From a phage, in the sequence record PQ724392.1: DNA of 64,000 nucleotides. One strand, given 5' to 3'. This document shows positions 6,364 through 45,080 of this stretch, one piece after another. Under the pieces are notes generated by a model. That model was not told where the DNA came from, searched no databases, and worked only from the letters and a program-made list of their open reading frames with translations. The position numbers and the translations under genes are program-made. How positions within the stretch are numbered: the first letter of the stretch is position 1; each line of letters opens with the position of its first letter.

Positions 6364-6888
6364 TTATGCGAGAACCGTCTTTAAACGCTCTTCAAACTTC
6401 TGAAGGAGTACCTGGCGCTCTGCTCTTTGTTTGGTATAGGTTTCAATACGCTCTGAAGTGAGATTGTATTGTTCATTAACTGATTCCCTCATGAATTCAG
6501 GAATCTCTTTACATGCTTTGATTTCATTGAACTTATCAAGCACCGCTTGTTGTTCAGCAATCAGACCATCATAATATTGGATATCTGATTTGATGTTTTG
6601 TACATCAGATTCAGTAGGCATATTTTTCTTTGCTCTTGTCGCCTGATACTCAGCATTAGTCTCTCTTGACCAGAACAAAGAGCGGTTTTTATTGGTGTTT
6701 TTATACACATCAACAATACCAACTGAATCAACAGTCACAATCCAGTTCCAGGCGTTTTTATAAGTTTGACCGCCTGATACTGTAATCTCACCCGCACAAG
6801 CAACATCATTAAAGAACTTGCTTTGTGCTTCTGATTTAAAATTACCATTATTGTAATTAATCAGATTAAAGATTGATTTCGCTTCCAT
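6364..6888 (-). CDS. hypothetical protein
   Basis: 174-aa ORF preceded by conserved leader cassette. Confidence 0.55.
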   Translation of the reverse strand: MEAKSIFNLINYNNGNFKSEAQSKFFNDVACAGEITVSGGQTYKNAWNWIVTVDSVGIVDVYKNTNKNRSLFWSRETNAEYQATRAKKNMPTESDVQNIKSDIQYYDGLIAEQQAVLDKFNEIKACKEIPEFMRESVNEQYNLTSERIETYTKQRAERQVLLQKFEERLKTVLA

Positions 6889-6924
6889 TTTATTCTCCAG
6901 TATTTGGTAACTCAGTATGGGAAC

Positions 6925-6953
6925 ATTATACGTCTATCCCCATACCATGTACA
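6925..6953 (-). promoter_or_regulatory. early promoter (TGTACA, 17 nt, TATAAT) in conserved leader cassette
   Basis: minus-strand reading; about 37-nt leader to ATG. Confidence 0.5.
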
Positions 6954-6956
6954 CAT

Positions 6957-7259
6957 TTAATTAAAAGTTCTTTCAGTATTTTCACCGCTGAACCAGACGC
7001 TCTTAACGGCTTGCTGGGCGCGGTAGAGCTGCTCCGCCATATAAACACCAAGGGCCTCAGCTTTACGCGTTCTGTGAGCTTCTGCGGCGACCATTTGCAG
7101 CTTATCCATCATGATAAGAGCTTTACATTTCTCCTTCAGAGCATATCGCTTCTTCTCTTCTGGAGTTTTGACCATTCCTCTTAACTTGTGCATTTTCAAC
7201 TTAAAATGGTCAGCAGATTTCAGACATGCATCAATCATGTCAATTTCATACTTTTTCAT
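6957..7259 (-). CDS. hypothetical protein
   Basis: 100-aa ORF. Confidence 0.5.
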   Translation of the reverse strand: MKKYEIDMIDACLKSADHFKLKMHKLRGMVKTPEEKKRYALKEKCKALIMMDKLQMVAAEAHRTRKAEALGVYMAEQLYRAQQAVKSVWFSGENTERTFN

Positions 7260-7265
7260 AATTCC

Positions 7266-7472
7266 TCACTTGCGACGACGTTTTGGTAATGGTTTAGGGA
7301 AGAACATTGCTTTACCTGCAGGGGTTAAAGTCACACGCAAAGCATTACCAATACCAAGGGATGCTTTAACCAGACCTTTGGCTTTTAACTCACCAAATGC
7401 TTGACGTTGTTCAGGGTCACGAGTGTTAACCATCAGACCTTTTTCACCAGCAGCTTTGATTAATTCTAACAT
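7266..7472 (-). CDS. small basic hypothetical protein
   Basis: 68 aa, Lys/Arg-rich C-terminus. Confidence 0.5.
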   Translation of the reverse strand: MLELIKAAGEKGLMVNTRDPEQRQAFGELKAKGLVKASLGIGNALRVTLTPAGKAMFFPKPLPKRRRK

Positions 7473-7513
7473 TTTATTCTCCGTTTGTTTATTTGGTAAC
7501 TCAGTATGGAATC

Positions 7514-7542
7514 ATTATGCCTCATGACCATCTGGTTGTACA
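7514..7542 (-). promoter_or_regulatory. early promoter (TGTACA, 17 nt, CATAAT) in conserved leader cassette
   Basis: same architecture as cassette at 6925. Confidence 0.5.
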
Positions 7543-7589
7543 CATATACTAAATAAAAATACTTAATAAAACCATAAAGGAGAAAGTTT

Positions 7590-8336
7590 ATGATTTTATC
7601 CGGAAGAACTGTTGATGAACTCAATGAAAAAGTCCAGGCTGCCTTGGCTAATAATTGGTATTTGTTTGGTTCTACTATGGTGTTGCCGAATACTCCTACG
7701 GATAGCAAAGAGCGTTTTTTCCAAACTATGTCCAGCTCGGAAACTCAGATACCGGGCCCGCCTGGTCCAAAAGGAGACCCGGGTGTACCAGGACCAAAAG
7801 GAGACCCAGGCGGGGATGGAAAGTCTTCTTATCAGATATGGCTTGACTTGGGAAATACAGGAACTGTTGATGATTTTTTAACTGATACAGCAGGAAAGAG
7901 GGAAAAATCCGAGGTGTTTTGGAGTGGTATAAACGTTCTATTAACTAATGGTGTGACTTCAAACATAATTAGTATTTTAAAGGGGATTCCGCCGACTGCA
8001 GGGACTCTATCTCCGTTTTTTAGAACCACTGATGATAAGTTGTGGCCATATAACCAAGACAGAAGCCTAATGTTTAAACTCAACCTTATTGGTAATTTTA
8101 CAGGAGCCTCGCAAGCTCGAAGTATAACATTAAATTTCGTTGGAACCAACGGAAACACTTATATACAGAATCGTCCGGAAAATGCTACAGATATTTTGTC
8201 TTTTACAACGTTCTTTAGCATTGATAAAGATGGGGCAATGGCAACCAATGGTACAGCTATAACTGTTATGCCAAATGGCGGCAACTTTACAATAACCTCT
8301 GCATTGTTAGTAGCCGAACAAACAGTGACTTCATAA
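7590..8336 (+). CDS. collagen-like repeat protein with beta-rich C-terminal domain
   Basis: 248 aa; AAAGGAG RBS; GPPGPKGDPGVPGPKGDPGGDG Gly-X-Y run; only plus-strand gene in the early block. Confidence 0.7.
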   Translation: MILSGRTVDELNEKVQAALANNWYLFGSTMVLPNTPTDSKERFFQTMSSSETQIPGPPGPKGDPGVPGPKGDPGGDGKSSYQIWLDLGNTGTVDDFLTDTAGKREKSEVFWSGINVLLTNGVTSNIISILKGIPPTAGTLSPFFRTTDDKLWPYNQDRSLMFKLNLIGNFTGASQARSITLNFVGTNGNTYIQNRPENATDILSFTTFFSIDKDGAMATNGTAITVMPNGGNFTITSALLVAEQTVTS

Positions 8337-8360
8337 ACAAAAAAAGGGCCAGATGGCCCT
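8337..8360. terminator. bidirectional hairpin terminator between convergent genes
   Basis: GGGCC..GGCCC stem flanked by A-run and T-rich tail. Confidence 0.5.
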
Positions 8361-8548
8361 TAGATTGCACTCCAAAAATTATGGAATCTTATAGTATTGA
8401 TAGCCCAGTTAACAAACCTGCGAGTTTGCTTGGGAGTTGGTTTGCATGTGTACTTGATATTGACCCGACGACCAGTTTCCCGACAGACTGCTTCGAGATA
8501 CCAGCGTCGACCTTTATTAGGTCTTCCGTATGATAAGAAGACCTTCAT
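8360..8548 (-). CDS. small basic hypothetical protein
   Basis: internal ATG at 8548 chosen to avoid overlap. Confidence 0.4.
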   Translation of the reverse strand: MKVFLSYGRPNKGRRWYLEAVCRETGRRVNIKYTCKPTPKQTRRFVNWAINTIRFHNFWSAI

Positions 8549-8555
8549 TTCTTCA

Positions 8556-9566
8556 TTAACGATAATAGGAATTGTGGTTGTCAAGATATACCTCTTCAAC
8601 AAACTTGTCCCAGAACTTCATGTCCACCTTCGCAGGCATACCGTTCTTAGCAGCCTGGATGGCCAGGACTTCAACTTCATCAACAGTATTTTCCAACAGG
8701 CCTTGAACTACTTTGAAAGGCATATCACCAGCTTTTATTGCTTTAATAATAGAAGCGTTTTTGAGCGGATAAACCAGGTCACCAGTTTGATAGATTTCCT
8801 TCAGCTGATATCCAGCTCGATAAGCATGGCTCAGAGCTTTCCAGTCAATACCTTCATTCGCTTCAGCCTTACGAGCACGTTCACCATATTCGGCATCAAG
8901 TTTATTCAGAGATTGCTTGAGCTCGATTAATGACAAAGTAGTTTGGTATTTACGACCGAGAATAGTATAGAACGTTTGAGGACCTGTTTTCTCATGGTTA
9001 TGAAATATCCATTCACAGAACTCGTTTTCAGGGAGTCTGTGTTTGATATCTTCTACCTTAGTACGTCGTTGCTTAGTAGAACCATCTTCTTGATAATCGA
9101 CCCATTGTTCAGGAATCTGGTTAACAATTTCCAATACACCACGCAGTGCAGCCAATCGAGAACCTTTAACACCATATTTGGAAGCTTGCTTACGGACGTA
9201 CCCCAAATAGGCTTTCATGTTAGTTGTATAGAACCGTGAACGGTTGTCCTGAATAAACTTCCATACATCTGGTAAATCGGATTTGACTACCAGGTCAGCC
9301 GGGGTGTGAATCATATCCAGAGCAACGGTTTCGCCATCGGCCGCCAGTTTAAAGAAATATTTCAGACTATAAAGTTCATGGTCAACATCATCTTTTGTAT
9401 TTTTGGTAGCCGTGTTATTCGTGTTCAGGTTTGTATGATTCATCGCGGTTCCGAGCAGGATATCTCGCGGATGTGGAACAAAGATTTCTTTAAAATCGAC
9501 ATCAGATTCTGGGGTACTTGTTCCATAAAGATGGCTACCGAAGTAGCCTTTCATAACTGTTCTCAT
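8556..9566 (-). CDS. nucleotidyltransferase-fold protein (Pol-beta/MNT-like motif)
   Basis: 336 aa; N-terminal YFGSHLYGTSTPESDVDF (GS, 10 residues, DxD) then helical region. Confidence 0.6.
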   Translation of the reverse strand: MRTVMKGYFGSHLYGTSTPESDVDFKEIFVPHPRDILLGTAMNHTNLNTNNTATKNTKDDVDHELYSLKYFFKLAADGETVALDMIHTPADLVVKSDLPDVWKFIQDNRSRFYTTNMKAYLGYVRKQASKYGVKGSRLAALRGVLEIVNQIPEQWVDYQEDGSTKQRRTKVEDIKHRLPENEFCEWIFHNHEKTGPQTFYTILGRKYQTTLSLIELKQSLNKLDAEYGERARKAEANEGIDWKALSHAYRAGYQLKEIYQTGDLVYPLKNASIIKAIKAGDMPFKVVQGLLENTVDEVEVLAIQAAKNGMPAKVDMKFWDKFVEEVYLDNHNSYYR

Positions 9567-13884: not shown

Positions 13885-14078
13885 AATTCAATTCCGTCCA
13901 TAGCCAAAATTCTTTTTCGTTGGGCCTTGAGAGCTTCATTAGCCCGGTCATAATCTTCTTGACTACCGCTAGGCTGTAAAGCCGCTACTTTTTTGGCCAA
14001 GTGAATAAGCTTATCCAAGTTTTCAACAATACGTTCTTGTTCTTCATTCAGGCTCATAACCATTGCACCTTTAAGCAA
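13881..14078 (-). CDS. hypothetical protein
   Basis: 65-aa ORF. Confidence 0.45.
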   Translation of the reverse strand: MLKGAMVMSLNEEQERIVENLDKLIHLAKKVAALQPSGSQEDYDRANEALKAQRKRILAMDGIEL

Positions 14079-14266
14079 TATTCTTCTACATGCTGTTTAC
14101 GTTTATTTTTATCTATAAAAGTATATTCAACAAATGTTCCAATATAGTCTTTATCTACATCATGTGGACTATTAATTGGGCATTTAGTACGGCAAATGCG
14201 TTCCCATTGACGAATAATTTCCACCTTGTTTTTAGGGTCAAACGGATGCGGGTAATGTGCTTTCAT
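14054..14266 (-). CDS. hypothetical protein
   Basis: 70-aa ORF. Confidence 0.45.
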   Translation of the reverse strand: MKAHYPHPFDPKNKVEIIRQWERICRTKCPINSPHDVDKDYIGTFVEYTFIDKNKRKQHVEEYCLKVQWL

Positions 14267-23779: not shown

Positions 23780-23992
23780 TTAGCATTCGTAAGAGGATGA
23801 TACCCAAGAGGTACCACTAATAGTAATACAACCGTTATAAAGCGTGATATGTCGTTCTAAGTCACGAACACCATCAATGTAGATATCAGCTTCTTCGCGT
23901 TCTTCTTTACAAATCTGGATAACGTTTTCAATAGCTGCCGCGGCAGTACGGATTGCACAATCTAATTCACGAGACATATAATTCCTTAACAT
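23780..23992 (-). CDS. small protein, WVSSSxxC-tail family member 1
   Basis: 70 aa ending WVSSSYEC. Confidence 0.5.
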   Translation of the reverse strand: MLRNYMSRELDCAIRTAAAAIENVIQICKEEREEADIYIDGVRDLERHITLYNGCITISGTSWVSSSYEC

Positions 23993-24267
23993 TCAGAAGA
24001 GGAGGACACCCAACCGCCATTTTCCAGGTCAGTTGTATAGTCATGAGTGTTAACAATAGCCCATTCAGGATGGCCATGTTCTTCCCAATGGGCAAGGTCA
24101 GCTTTCAAGGCACCAGGAGAATAATAGTCACCGCCCATACCGCGAGCAGGGTATATATTAAAATGAGTCTCATATTTGTTTGCAATTTCCTCGGCACGAC
24201 GAATAGCTTTATGGATATCATTTACTGCGTTAGCCAGTTCTTTATTTTTACGGTAATCATTCATCAT
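23986..24267 (-). CDS. small protein, WVSSSxxC-tail family member 2
   Basis: 93 aa ending WVSSSSEC. Confidence 0.5.
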   Translation of the reverse strand: MMNDYRKNKELANAVNDIHKAIRRAEEIANKYETHFNIYPARGMGGDYYSPGALKADLAHWEEHGHPEWAIVNTHDYTTDLENGGWVSSSSEC

Positions 24268-24276
24268 AGCGTTTCC

Positions 24277-24567
24277 TTAGCACATTGCCGAAGAGGAGAC
24301 CCAAGCACCAACTGTAACGACACCGTTTTCAACTTCGCCGCCGTTGTTTTCAATTTCATCTTTAAACCACTGGGAGCACTCATAACCGACAGGATAATAT
24401 GTACGGCCTGAACCATAATCACCGGTACCGAATTGGATACCATATTCATCTGCGATTTCTTCACAGTGTTTTTCAATTTCAGAGGTCTTATTTAGAAGAG
24501 AATAGATAGCTTTTTCTGCAGATTTCTCATCATAATACTTGGGGATAGCAATTTCAATTTTATTCAT
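24277..24567 (-). CDS. small protein, WVSSSxxC-tail family member 3
   Basis: 96 aa ending WVSSSAMC. Confidence 0.5.
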   Translation of the reverse strand: MNKIEIAIPKYYDEKSAEKAIYSLLNKTSEIEKHCEEIADEYGIQFGTGDYGSGRTYYPVGYECSQWFKDEIENNGGEVENGVVTVGAWVSSSAMC

Positions 24568-26500: not shown

Positions 26501-26806
26501 TTAGATTTTGTTTTCCTGCACACCATAATAAAGTTCATCAGACACAATATCCAGGATGCGGCGAACATATTCATCATGGTATTGGCAGTCAAAATCAAAT
26601 GCAACAGTAGTTTCCGCTTCACGAGTGAATTTAACTTGCACATTCAGGTGATTAACAACGTTAGTTAATTTATCAGTAAAGAACTCTTTTGCTACCGCCT
26701 GTTGGACTTGCACTTTAAACTTGGTGTTACGAATCATATTTTCAGCAGATGCGAAATTACCAGTTTTATCAAAGTCAACAAGCGCCAGGTTGATGATGAA
26801 TTTCAT
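26501..26806 (-). CDS. hypothetical protein
   Basis: 101-aa ORF behind leader cassette. Confidence 0.5.
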   Translation of the reverse strand: MKFIINLALVDFDKTGNFASAENMIRNTKFKVQVQQAVAKEFFTDKLTNVVNHLNVQVKFTREAETTVAFDFDCQYHDEYVRRILDIVSDELYYGVQENKI

Positions 26807-26847
26807 TTTATTCTCCAGTGTTTTATTTGGTAACTCAGTATGGAATC

Positions 26848-26877
26848 ATTATGCCTTAAAGCAGGGGGCTTGTATAC
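26848..26877 (-). promoter_or_regulatory. early promoter with -35 (GTATACA) in hairpin loop (PeSL-like cassette)
   Basis: GGGGG..CCCCC hairpin, 17-18 nt, CATAAT, conserved leader. Confidence 0.5.
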
Positions 26878-26889
26878 CCCCTTTTTGAA

Positions 26890-27333
26890 TTAAATTTCAA
26901 ATTCTTTGCGGAAGTTGGAAGCATAAGACTGAACTGATGCTTTGTTGAATCCAAACTCACGCACAATCATATCAATAACAGCTCTGCGAGCAGCACCATT
27001 AGACATATTAACAGTTTTGAACATATCATAGCATAAATCTTTGTTGCTCATACCGGAGCGTTTAGGTGCCTTACGTTCAGCTTTTGGTTCAGCTTTAGGA
27101 GTAGGTTTAACTTCTGGTTTAACCTGTCCATCATTCAGACCTTTAAAAATTTTACCTGCCAGAGTTGCCAGTTTAGCAGCTTCGCCACGAGTGATACCAA
27201 ATACTGCCGGGTTAAATGAAATACCTTCAGCTGCCAGACGTTTGAAGAACATACGTGCTGCGGATTGTGCTTCAGCTTCAGAAGAGTTGTTTAATGCCAG
27301 CTTAACGTACTTAACCAGTTTTGAAGTTTTCAT
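26890..27333 (-). CDS. hypothetical protein, paralog of 27415-27840
   Basis: 147 aa; shared tail GAARRAVID...VQSYASNFRK. Confidence 0.55.
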   Translation of the reverse strand: MKTSKLVKYVKLALNNSSEAEAQSAARMFFKRLAAEGISFNPAVFGITRGEAAKLATLAGKIFKGLNDGQVKPEVKPTPKAEPKAERKAPKRSGMSNKDLCYDMFKTVNMSNGAARRAVIDMIVREFGFNKASVQSYASNFRKEFEI

Positions 27334-27373
27334 TTTATTCTCCAGTGTTTATTTGGTAACTCAGTATGGGATA

Positions 27374-27403
27374 ATTATACACTATCCCACCTGGAAGTAA
27401 AAC
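27374..27403 (-). promoter_or_regulatory. early promoter (GTTTTAC, 17 nt, TATAAT) in conserved leader cassette
   Basis: minus-strand reading; -10 within GGGATA..TATCCC hairpin. Confidence 0.5.
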
Positions 27404-27414
27404 ACTTTTCTCAA

Positions 27415-27840
27415 TTATTTTTGAGCTTTGCGGAAGTTGGAAGCATATGACTGAACAACAGTCTTTTTGATATCATGGGTGTTAACCAGAACATCAATCA
27501 GGGCGCGTCGAGCTGCACCATCTGCCATATCAATTTCTGCAAATGCCTGGAAGCAAATGTCACGAGCATTACCAGATTTAGACTGGATTTTTTCTTCTTT
27601 AACTTCTTCAATTGGGAATTCAATCATTTCAGCTTGGATTAATTCAATGATAGATTCTTTTGACTGTTTGGTGTTTACCTTCAGTTCAGAATTAAGGGAC
27701 TTAGCGATGGCAACAATCTGGGTTGAAGTCAGATGAATAAGTGCATCTTCACGAATGCAGATTTCACATACTTCGTCGGCAACCATTTTGTTAGTGATGC
27801 GGGTAACAGAGAATGCAGAAGTCAGGGTCAGGAAGTTCAT
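27415..27840 (-). CDS. hypothetical protein, paralog of 26890-27333
   Basis: ATG 27840 with GGAG RBS; shared C-terminal tail. Confidence 0.55.
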   Translation of the reverse strand: MNFLTLTSAFSVTRITNKMVADEVCEICIREDALIHLTSTQIVAIAKSLNSELKVNTKQSKESIIELIQAEMIEFPIEEVKEEKIQSKSGNARDICFQAFAEIDMADGAARRALIDVLVNTHDIKKTVVQSYASNFRKAQK

Positions 27841-27891
27841 TTTATTTCTCCAAAGTTTTGTTTGATTCAGTGTGTAACTCAGTATGGAATC

Positions 27892-27920
27892 ATTATGCAT
27901 CCAGTCAATTCGGATGTACA
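27892..27920 (-). promoter_or_regulatory. early promoter (TGTACA, 17 nt, CATAAT) in conserved leader cassette
   Basis: third copy of the conserved leader. Confidence 0.5.
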
Positions 27921-27958
27921 CTACTTTTTGAAGAAAATTTCAAATTTATTCGGGGTAT

Positions 27959-45072: not shown

Positions 45073-45080
45073 TATAAATA
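45073..45080 (+). promoter_or_regulatory. late promoter TATAAATA for gene 9
   Basis: exact 8-mer about 28 nt upstream of ATG. Confidence 0.6.

Follow-up and report, generated by a model that had tools for sequence, protein, structure and literature searches.

Every gene but one between positions 24 and 35749 of the phage DNA analysed here is read from the minus strand, and the question raised by this locus is what the exception encodes, when it is expressed and where its product goes. The DNA, a stretch of 64,000 nucleotides from sequence record PQ724392.1 (hereafter the window), belongs to a T4-like coliphage of the genus Gaprivervirus, its positions 7400-8500 being 97-98% identical to TH54, ECML-359, RZ and others; the gene, an open reading frame (ORF) of 248 aa, lies in the variable nrdC-mobD region (RefSeq record of phage RZ). 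An original prediction, made from the letters of the sequence, had proposed a collagen stalk with a trimeric head of the C1q/TNF type at its end, in what could be an acquired gene for a fibre, adhesin or decoration, and this reading is supported by the analyses presented here. These also bring out a part of the protein that was not visible to that prediction and is new here, a DUF1737-like N-terminal domain, and they suggest that the product is a late-expressed, non-essential accessory fibre of the virion, made of four modules and three chains. Taken as a whole, we hold this explanation to be evenly poised; that the protein is a late fibre displayed on the virion is likely, and its anchoring on the capsid, proposed by analogy, is a tentative placement to which we give somewhat less than an even chance.

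Architecture of the protein

The ORF is a real gene, because it evolves under purifying selection (ratio of non-synonymous to synonymous substitution rates, dN/dS, of 0.10-0.23 where measurable against six orthologues, at divergences up to synonymous-site saturation) and because its product matches a solved structure at E 1e-31. The proposed reading frame, its ATG start and the strong ribosome-binding site (RBS) ahead of it are all present (Table 1), and homologues range from 96% down to about 45% identity to the 248-aa protein. In phage RZ, which is 97% identical, the gene is the sole annotated plus-strand coding sequence (CDS) between 53,025 and 85,729, and a greedy ORF set of the window gave no other credible plus-strand gene from 24 to 35749, so that its solitary position is confirmed; a 152-aa plus-strand ORF at 23953-24411, which overlaps two minus-strand ORFs of the annotated type, was rejected as spurious.

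The C-terminal module is a knob of the Sf6 type, with the jelly roll of TNF/C1q-like proteins. It matches Phage_tail_NK in Pfam (PF16532; E 3.2e-32, 112 bits where 27 is the cut-off, positions 30-175 of the 175-position profile), PHROG 1030 (E 1.8e-67) and the PDB structures 3RWN and 4K6B (E 1e-31; 3RWN, E 1.2e-31), and its AlphaFold2 (AF2) model, with pLDDT values mostly of 70-93, finds the same two structures in Foldseek (E 1e-16, target TM 0.84-0.88, root-mean-square deviation 2.3-2.8 Å). The next-best Foldseek neighbours are ExsFA of the Bacillus exosporium, the phi812 spike knob, PRD1 P5, EDA-A1, C1q-like proteins and TNF-like lectins. The guess of a C1q/TNF-like head was therefore a good one, and the expected Thr/Asn/Gly-rich domain of about 170 residues is likewise there (171 residues, with 14% Thr, 8.8% Asn and 8.8% Gly). 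C1QL2/3, EDA-A1 and PRD1 P5 resemble the knob in fold only (E 1e-4 to 1e-3), and no Pfam C1q or TNF match was found in the protein at E up to 1. The knob, modelled here as a monomer, would form a trimer, as its homology and the adjoining collagen run suggest.

In spite of the closeness of this module to the tail-needle knob of Sf6 gp9/HS1 (3RWN, 4K6B), with which it shares a homologous 146-residue C-terminus, about 40% identity and, at TM 0.86, the same jelly roll, the protein is not a tail needle, because shaft, plug and genomic context all fail: (i) homology with the gp26/gp9 proteins of P22 and Sf6 begins at residue 99, their N-terminal plug and trimeric coiled-coil shaft being missing here, and no needle family was matched in Pfam at E up to 1; (ii) gp26/gp9 are encoded in a podovirus tail cluster, whereas the present gene lies in the nrdC-mobD region of a contractile-tailed, T4-like phage. 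The knob is C-terminal, as in all known PF16532 members. Databases probably mislabel the protein as part of a tail needle, with the RefSeq label 'tail needle knob' standing on at least 13 T4-like records in the tblastn listing.

The collagen-like run GPPGPKGDPGVPGPKGDPGGDG (residues 56-77) had been described as having eight or so Gly-X-Y triplets; it consists of seven unbroken triplets (residues 56-76) and a closing Gly77, with Pro at 8 of the 14 X/Y positions. Because it is so short, it stays under the cut-off of Pfam Collagen (PF01391; E 0.0032, 17.6 bits against 27.2), a family that the longer homologue P0009 does match. Its length varies among homologues: RB43 and Carvaje have 0 triplets, others have 7-14, and P0009 has about 27. 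The original prediction had named a run not conserved in close homologues as a sign against its reading, and the outcome is divided: the run is kept, at variable length, in four genera, and is lost in Pseudotevenvirus and the Carvaje siphovirus. Because of this variation and these absences, the run behaves as a spacer, dispensable and of tunable length, rather than as the protein's core. Its repeated PKGDP is encoded by a direct repeat of 14 bp, CCAAAAGGAGACCC, whose two copies (7767-7780 and 7794-7807) are 27 bp apart; this repeat is probably prone to slippage, which would explain the variation in triplet number among homologues.

Between stalk and knob, two helices (residues 80-86 and 93-101 in the AF2 model) form a neck that is covered by no Pfam family. 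Its motif, KSAYxxWL-GNxGT-xxFL, recurs in many phage fibre-like proteins, often in tandem or alternating with short collagen runs, and is present in P0012-P0017, P0023 and P0058.

The N-terminal domain is, as judged from profiles and models, a divergent member of DUF1737 at the family level. All six of the family members tested match Pfam DUF1737 (PF08410; best E 2.6e-6), and in a profile search of 1.84 billion proteins made without a word index, small Pfam-certified DUF1737 proteins rank just after the domain's own family. With hhalign, the domain aligns to the N-terminus of phi24B gp84 together with DUF1737 proteins at 99.1% (E 1.7e-18), a score somewhat inflated by the fact that this target alignment was partly retrieved with the domain's own profile. 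The DUF1737 fold, one helix and three antiparallel strands in ~55 residues, is matched by the AF2 model (strand 2-5, helix 8-20, strands 24-31 and 43-48; pLDDT 77.7); in BFVD, which collects predicted structures of viral proteins, the best neighbours of this model outside the family are DUF1737 proteins (probability 1.0, TM 0.6-0.76). Word-indexed searches gave no candidate with the 55-aa domain alone and, with an alignment of 14 N-domain sequences, small DUF1737 proteins only and no new architectures. A PDB sequence search with the domain profile returned chance matches only (E > 0.4), Foldseek found nothing below E 1 for the model in the April 2026 copy of the PDB, in which the phi24B model is evidently not included, NCBIfam gave no match, and PHROGs gave nothing significant for the domain alone.

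The domain also occurs in other layouts in the metagenomic proteins P0057, P0058 and P0059, among them two tandem N-domains followed by about nine 'IQWR...W..L' repeats (520 aa) and three alternating collagen and SAYQIW modules ahead of a knob (335 aa); because of these varied layouts, anchor, stalk modules and head appear to have been shuffled independently. In BFVD, the N-domain model has weak matches (E about 1; ranks 29, 38 and 49) to the N-terminus of a 'collagen-like protein' of vB_EcoS-BECP10, and also to the N-termini of proteins of the T1-like siphoviruses Rogue1 and Jk06, which hints that a DUF1737-like anchor joined to collagen may be a wider design across phages.

Timing of expression and cassette boundaries

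The orthologue is a lone plus-strand gene within a minus-strand block at all eight loci examined, which represent five T4-like genera (Gaprivervirus, Dhakavirus, Tegunavirus, Kanagawavirus and Pseudotevenvirus). As the original prediction had noted, no exact T4 late promoter, TATAAATA, precedes the gene in the window, the nearest plus-strand copy being at 45073; the variant TAAAAATA is the sole site with at most one mismatch to it in 7473-7589, and the putative late promoter of the present lineage is thus one base off consensus. At orthologous loci the exact TATAAATA stands at -30 in MN04 and AnYang and at -33 in fHe-Yen9-01 and PEi20, and CATAAATA stands at -30 in RB43, CfP1 and D6b; the TAAAAATA site of the window stands at -36, and genuine exact TATAAATA sites of the window precede gene starts at a modal distance of 26-39 nt. 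In T4, early and middle transcription is reportedly confined to one strand, the other carrying late transcripts. Late expression of the knob gene is likely because of these three observations together: the motifs of the orthologues, the promoter distances within the window and the strand rule of T4. Transcription would start at the weakened TAAAAATA, on the strand that T4-type phages reserve for late transcripts. Two other kinds of promoter were rejected: the sigma-70 sites upstream of the gene are on the minus strand only, and a MotA middle promoter would need a TGCTT box at a suitable distance, which is absent from 7473-7589. A second TAAAAATA is found at 14104-14111 (minus strand), 33 nt upstream of the gene start at 14078, so that the same variant recurs at a similar distance.

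The surrounding block had been called an early-gene block, of which the minus-strand part stands and the purely early part does not. Five minus-strand TATAAATA sites are found in it (12628, 29041, 32033, 33331 and 35778), four of them 17-39 nt ahead of minus-strand gene starts, and the annotation of RZ places late genes there (lysozyme, internal head proteins and gp2/3/4 homologues).

A hairpin does lie at the 3' end of the gene, with a 7-bp stem and five G-C pairs, and it is not the bidirectional terminator that had been proposed, being canonical on the minus strand only. The run of seven T residues follows it on that strand only, the plus strand continuing with UAGAUUGC; folding gives -18.8 kcal/mol (z -3.0) for the minus strand and -14.6 kcal/mol (z -1.9) for the plus strand; and the terminator scan calls the minus strand only. 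The convergent minus-strand ORF therefore has a good terminator in this hairpin, and the knob gene only a weak one. At the orthologous loci of RB43 and CfP1 the hairpins are truly bidirectional. The convergent ORF (8360-8602, 80 aa), with this minus-strand terminator directly after it, resembles VR7 ORF100c, shares 47 nt with the 3' end of the nrdC.11 nucleotidyltransferase gene and is unannotated in the RefSeq record of RZ.

The knob gene is a self-contained, exchangeable cassette. In pairwise alignment with VR7, identity ends after ...GGTTGTACAC (about 7544), where the -35 box of a conserved early promoter has just ended, and restarts at CTTAGATTGCACTCC (about 8359), just past the hairpin; the slot in VR7 is occupied by an unrelated minus-strand ORF (ORF099c), and among the 38 records that share the flanks only nine carry the gene. 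These sharp junctions and this distribution support the suspected acquisition of the gene. Recent foreign origin by composition was rejected, the ORF having 41.1% G+C and the window 40.4%.

The left boundary of the cassette is a repeated element in which GTGTACA-N17-CATAAT, GATTCCATACTGAGTTACCAAATAAA, GGAG and the ATG of the 7266-7472 gene follow one another; the promoter scan places TGTACA-17-CATAAT at 7542-7514, and BLAST self-matches of the element were found at 6886, 26804, 27331 and 27838. Aligned, the five minus-strand copies (6871-6976, 7455-7560, 26789-26894, 27316-27421 and 27823-27935) look like recombination or regulatory cassettes of the PeSL type. Their consensus is GTGTACA/TTTACT-N17-(C/T)ATAAT, GATTCCATACTGAGTTACCAAATAAA, GGAG and AATAAAATG, each copy standing ahead of a different small minus-strand gene, and in the one at 26789-26894 a G5/C5 stem-loop overlaps the -35 region. 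Read on the early strand, the locus presents a stem-loop terminator, the antisense knob gene and an early promoter, that is, a split PeSL-type element: a stem-loop terminator and a conserved early promoter around a variable ORF in a hyperplastic region. Modular shuffling in T4-like genomes is proposed to proceed through such elements (PMC4122927; Arbiol 2010; Comeau 2014), and a knob gene of the Vi01 group has likewise been described as an insertion (PMC5048108). In our explanation, the minus-strand hairpin would halt early antisense transcription before the knob gene and the repeated early promoter on its far side would restart it; with these flanks the cassette would therefore be insulated, and could be swapped by recombination between such elements.

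Proposed placement on the particle and competing explanations

We propose that the four modules divide the work of the fibre as follows. The ~50-residue DUF1737-type domain would dock the protein on the particle, most likely on the capsid shell, as the analogy of phi24B gp84 suggests. The seven triplets would form a triple-helical stalk of ~6 nm (21 residues x ~0.29 nm), spacing the knob away from this anchor, and the two-helix neck ('SYQIWL-GNTGT-DFL') would set, along with the knob, the register of the three chains. The trimer of Sf6-type TNF/C1q-like knobs would be the exposed tip, which probably binds a surface ligand, be it a glycan, an envelope component or a small molecule.

The analogy with the Stx phage phi24B rests on a 2026 preprint. 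In gp84, a NanS-p esterase, residues 2-57 were seen by cryo-electron microscopy as a domain of a helix and three strands, forming a hexamer over the pore of the face-centre hexons; the authors class it as a decorating capsid protein, from which, in their proposal, cleavage removes the esterase cargo (bioRxiv 10.64898/2026.04.10.717836). The homologous N-domain of gp84 (~55 residues, helix plus three strands) stands, as here, before a linker and a 'cargo', and its gene, again as here, is an accessory one outside the structural module; it lies downstream of the annotated late promoter pR'. The two systems differ in several respects: the cargo is an esterase there and a collagen-stalked knob here; the Tyr42 'tooth' of gp84 is not conserved in the window (Pro/Thr in the loop), although Tyr or Phe is found in RB43, fHe-Yen9-01 and PEi20; and the coat protein is here of the T4 gp23 type, already with Hoc, unlike that of phi24B.

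Contexts elsewhere lean towards the head. The Carvaje siphovirus orthologue begins at the stop codon of the terminase large subunit, upstream of the portal gene, and Aeromonas phage 31 encodes a knob protein, ORF163w (L012 2566-3432), between gp23 (major capsid) and gp24 (vertex); this protein of 288 aa has its knob at the C-terminus and a different N-terminus with a tail-fibre-like motif (SFNGRIGPV...). For a Vi01-like myovirus, a knob-only homologue was represented by 16 spectra from CsCl-purified virions (PMC10892097).

The same design is met in other systems. PRD1 P5 has an N-terminal particle-binding part, a collagen-like Gly-X-Y stretch and a C-terminal TNF-like trimeric knob. It is a structural neighbour of the present knob (1yq8, 1yq5, E 1e-4) without sequence similarity to it, and its place is at the five-fold vertices of a phage that contains a membrane and has no tail. 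C1q, EDA-A1 and the Bacillus exosporium proteins have the same head fold with a collagen run directly N-terminal to it, the run of the present protein being far shorter and its anchor different. The protein thus resembles PRD1 P5, C1q and the exosporium proteins in design only. T4 Hoc plays a part like the one proposed here: it is a late and dispensable decoration that projects outward, and its gene lies apart from the core head genes. In build it differs, Hoc being a monomer in which Ig-like domains form a string and the capsid-binding domain is C-terminal, and neither its sequence nor its fold is related. Hoc and the knob gene co-occur, and the two may compete for sites or partition them.

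Several points weigh against a late fibre docked on the capsid: (i) the window's own N-domain scores below the DUF1737 cut-off (E 0.0034, 17.6 bits against 24 bits); (ii) capsid binding by DUF1737, from which ours would follow by analogy, is known from one podovirus with a coat protein unrelated in sequence, and from one preprint; (iii) single-domain DUF1737 genes lie among small non-structural ORFs, a context that is uninformative; (iv) Hoc is also encoded (RZ; Pseudotevenvirus) and occupies the hexon centres, so that a site of the phi24B type may be taken; (v) the symmetry of a hexameric anchor does not match that of a trimeric stalk; (vi) the late promoter is a 7/8 match only, and sites with one mismatch occur by chance 0.75 times per kb per strand; (vii) in the literature, searched for fHe-Yen9-01, GuL6 and RB43 as regards virion proteomics, no virion proteomics, microscopy or transcript data were found for the protein or its full-length orthologues; and (viii) P22 fitted with an Sf6-type (HS1) knob had an unchanged host specificity, and loss of the glutamate site was without phenotype (PMC3741392). 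Because of these last results the ligand-binding role of the knob is unproven; in the same P22 chimeras the knob changed the rate of DNA delivery (PMC3741392), and the TNF-like lectins among its structural neighbours bind glycans.

A knob that triggers DNA delivery or contacts the envelope could also sit at the distal end of the tail, the protein being a fibre or tip of the tail or baseplate. The database name 'tail needle knob' and the filing of PHROG 1030 under 'tail' would agree with this, as would the structural neighbourhood of the phi812 central-spike knob (E 3e-5) and the jumbo phage CRJP21, where the knob forms the end of a fibre-like 'structural protein' of 455 aa that is rich in repeats. 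We nevertheless consider it unlikely: what precedes residue 99 is DUF1737-like domain, collagen and neck, with no homology to needle shaft or plug; in T4-like phages the spike has a PAAR protein as its cap, and RZ has one annotated; the gene lies outside tail and baseplate gene clusters at all eight loci examined; and no known baseplate-attachment domain was detected with Pfam, PHROGs or NCBIfam.

Less probable still is a late protein that is not part of the virion, whether released at lysis as a soluble, lectin-like trimer or decoy or docked transiently and then shed. The position of the gene outside structural modules, its accessory character (9 of 38 related records), the non-structural surroundings of single-domain DUF1737 genes, the cleavage of cargo from its DUF1737 anchor proposed for phi24B and the TNF-like bacterial lectins among the structural neighbours all point that way, but a collagen stalk with a trimeric head is typical of anchored fibres (PRD1 P5, C1q, exosporium proteins), direct reading of the N-terminal sequence gave no signal peptide or lipobox, and the knob homologue of the Vi01-like phage was found in purified virions. 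That the gene is a functionless passenger, a mobile cassette kept only via the shuffling of promoter and terminator repeats, is very improbable, since its patchy distribution, its sharp junctions beside repeated promoters and its degraded late promoter are set against a dN/dS that stays low up to synonymous saturation and against an intact reading frame with a four-module layout that is conserved across five genera of T4-like phages and one of siphoviruses.

Going beyond the capsid-anchored fibre, DUF1737 could be a portable capsid-docking module, used on unrelated coats (a T=9 podovirus, T4-type prolate heads, a siphovirus) and displaying here a collagen-stalked knob as an unrecognised head fibre or adhesin of T4-like phages. 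We regard this as a speculative possibility, doubtful as it stands, under which the fibre may share the hexons with Hoc or compete with it for them, with two trimers per hexameric anchor or some other solution to the mismatch.

The gene of the window is the Gaprivervirus orthologue of an RB43 protein (47% identity over the full length), and the knob homologues of RB43, phage 31 and Vi01-type phages were listed earlier as being of unknown function (Leavitt et al. 2013). RB43-type proteins are without the collagen run, those of the Vi01 type consist of the knob only, and that of phage 31 has a different N-terminal part. Neither the DUF1737-collagen-knob layout nor its late promoter or cassette was found described in the literature, and the PP35 paper leaves the knob ORF unmentioned. 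Were the fibre anchored on the capsid, it would represent a second swappable decoration system in T4-like phages besides Hoc and Soc; it would put DUF1737, the esterase carrier of Stx phages, forward as a candidate for a display handle of general use in phage engineering; it would account for an orphan family known since 2013 as 'knob homologues of unknown function'; and it would correct a widespread 'tail needle knob' label that points to the wrong end of the virion. Were it tail-associated or not part of the virion, this would be an ordinary accessory gene with a known domain. The collagen length of 0 to about 27 triplets and the PeSL-type cassette offer an example of how surface accessory fibres may be tuned and exchanged among T4-like genomes.

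Features of the locus and its surroundings

Table 1. Features at the knob-gene locus, in positions of the window
Feature	Position	Strand	Basis
Collagen-stalked knob fibre CDS, 248 aa (putative fibre)	7590..8336	+	ATG start, ORF list, homologues, dN/dS
RBS AAGGAG	7577..7582	+	7 nt before ATG, read from sequence
N-terminal domain, residues 1-52, divergent DUF1737 fold, candidate virion/capsid docking module	7590..7745	+	Pfam, hhalign, AF2, BFVD
Collagen-like stalk, residues 56-77, 7 G-X-Y triplets	7755..7820	+	Sequence
Two-helix neck KSSYQIWLDLGNTGTVDDFLTDTAG, residues 78-101	7821..7892	+	AF2 model, motif recurrence
Sf6-type knob, TNF/C1q-like jelly roll, residues 99-244 (146)	7884..8321	+	PF16532, PHROG 1030, PDB, Foldseek
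TAAAAATA, 7/8 match to T4 late promoter TATAAATA, 36 nt before ATG	7554..7561	+	Motif scan
G+C-rich hairpin AAGGGCC-ATCT-GGCCCTT, between two convergent genes	8344..8361	.	Terminator scan, folding
Exchangeable cassette: late-promoter-like site, RBS, ORF, hairpin	7545..8358	.	VR7 alignment
Repeated early-promoter and 5' untranslated region element, PeSL-like, left boundary of the cassette	7455..7560	-	Five aligned copies, BLAST, promoter scan

The knob gene is flanked on the left by an RB69-ORF102c-like gene (7266-7472, minus strand) and nrdC.9, and on the right by the nrdC.11 nucleotidyltransferase gene (8556-9566, minus strand). Further along the same block, two adjacent minus-strand ORFs, 23986-24267 (93 aa) and 24277-24567 (96 aa), are paralogous and end in GGWVSSSSEC and GAWVSSSAMC, respectively, an apparent tandem duplication of a small Cys-terminal protein.

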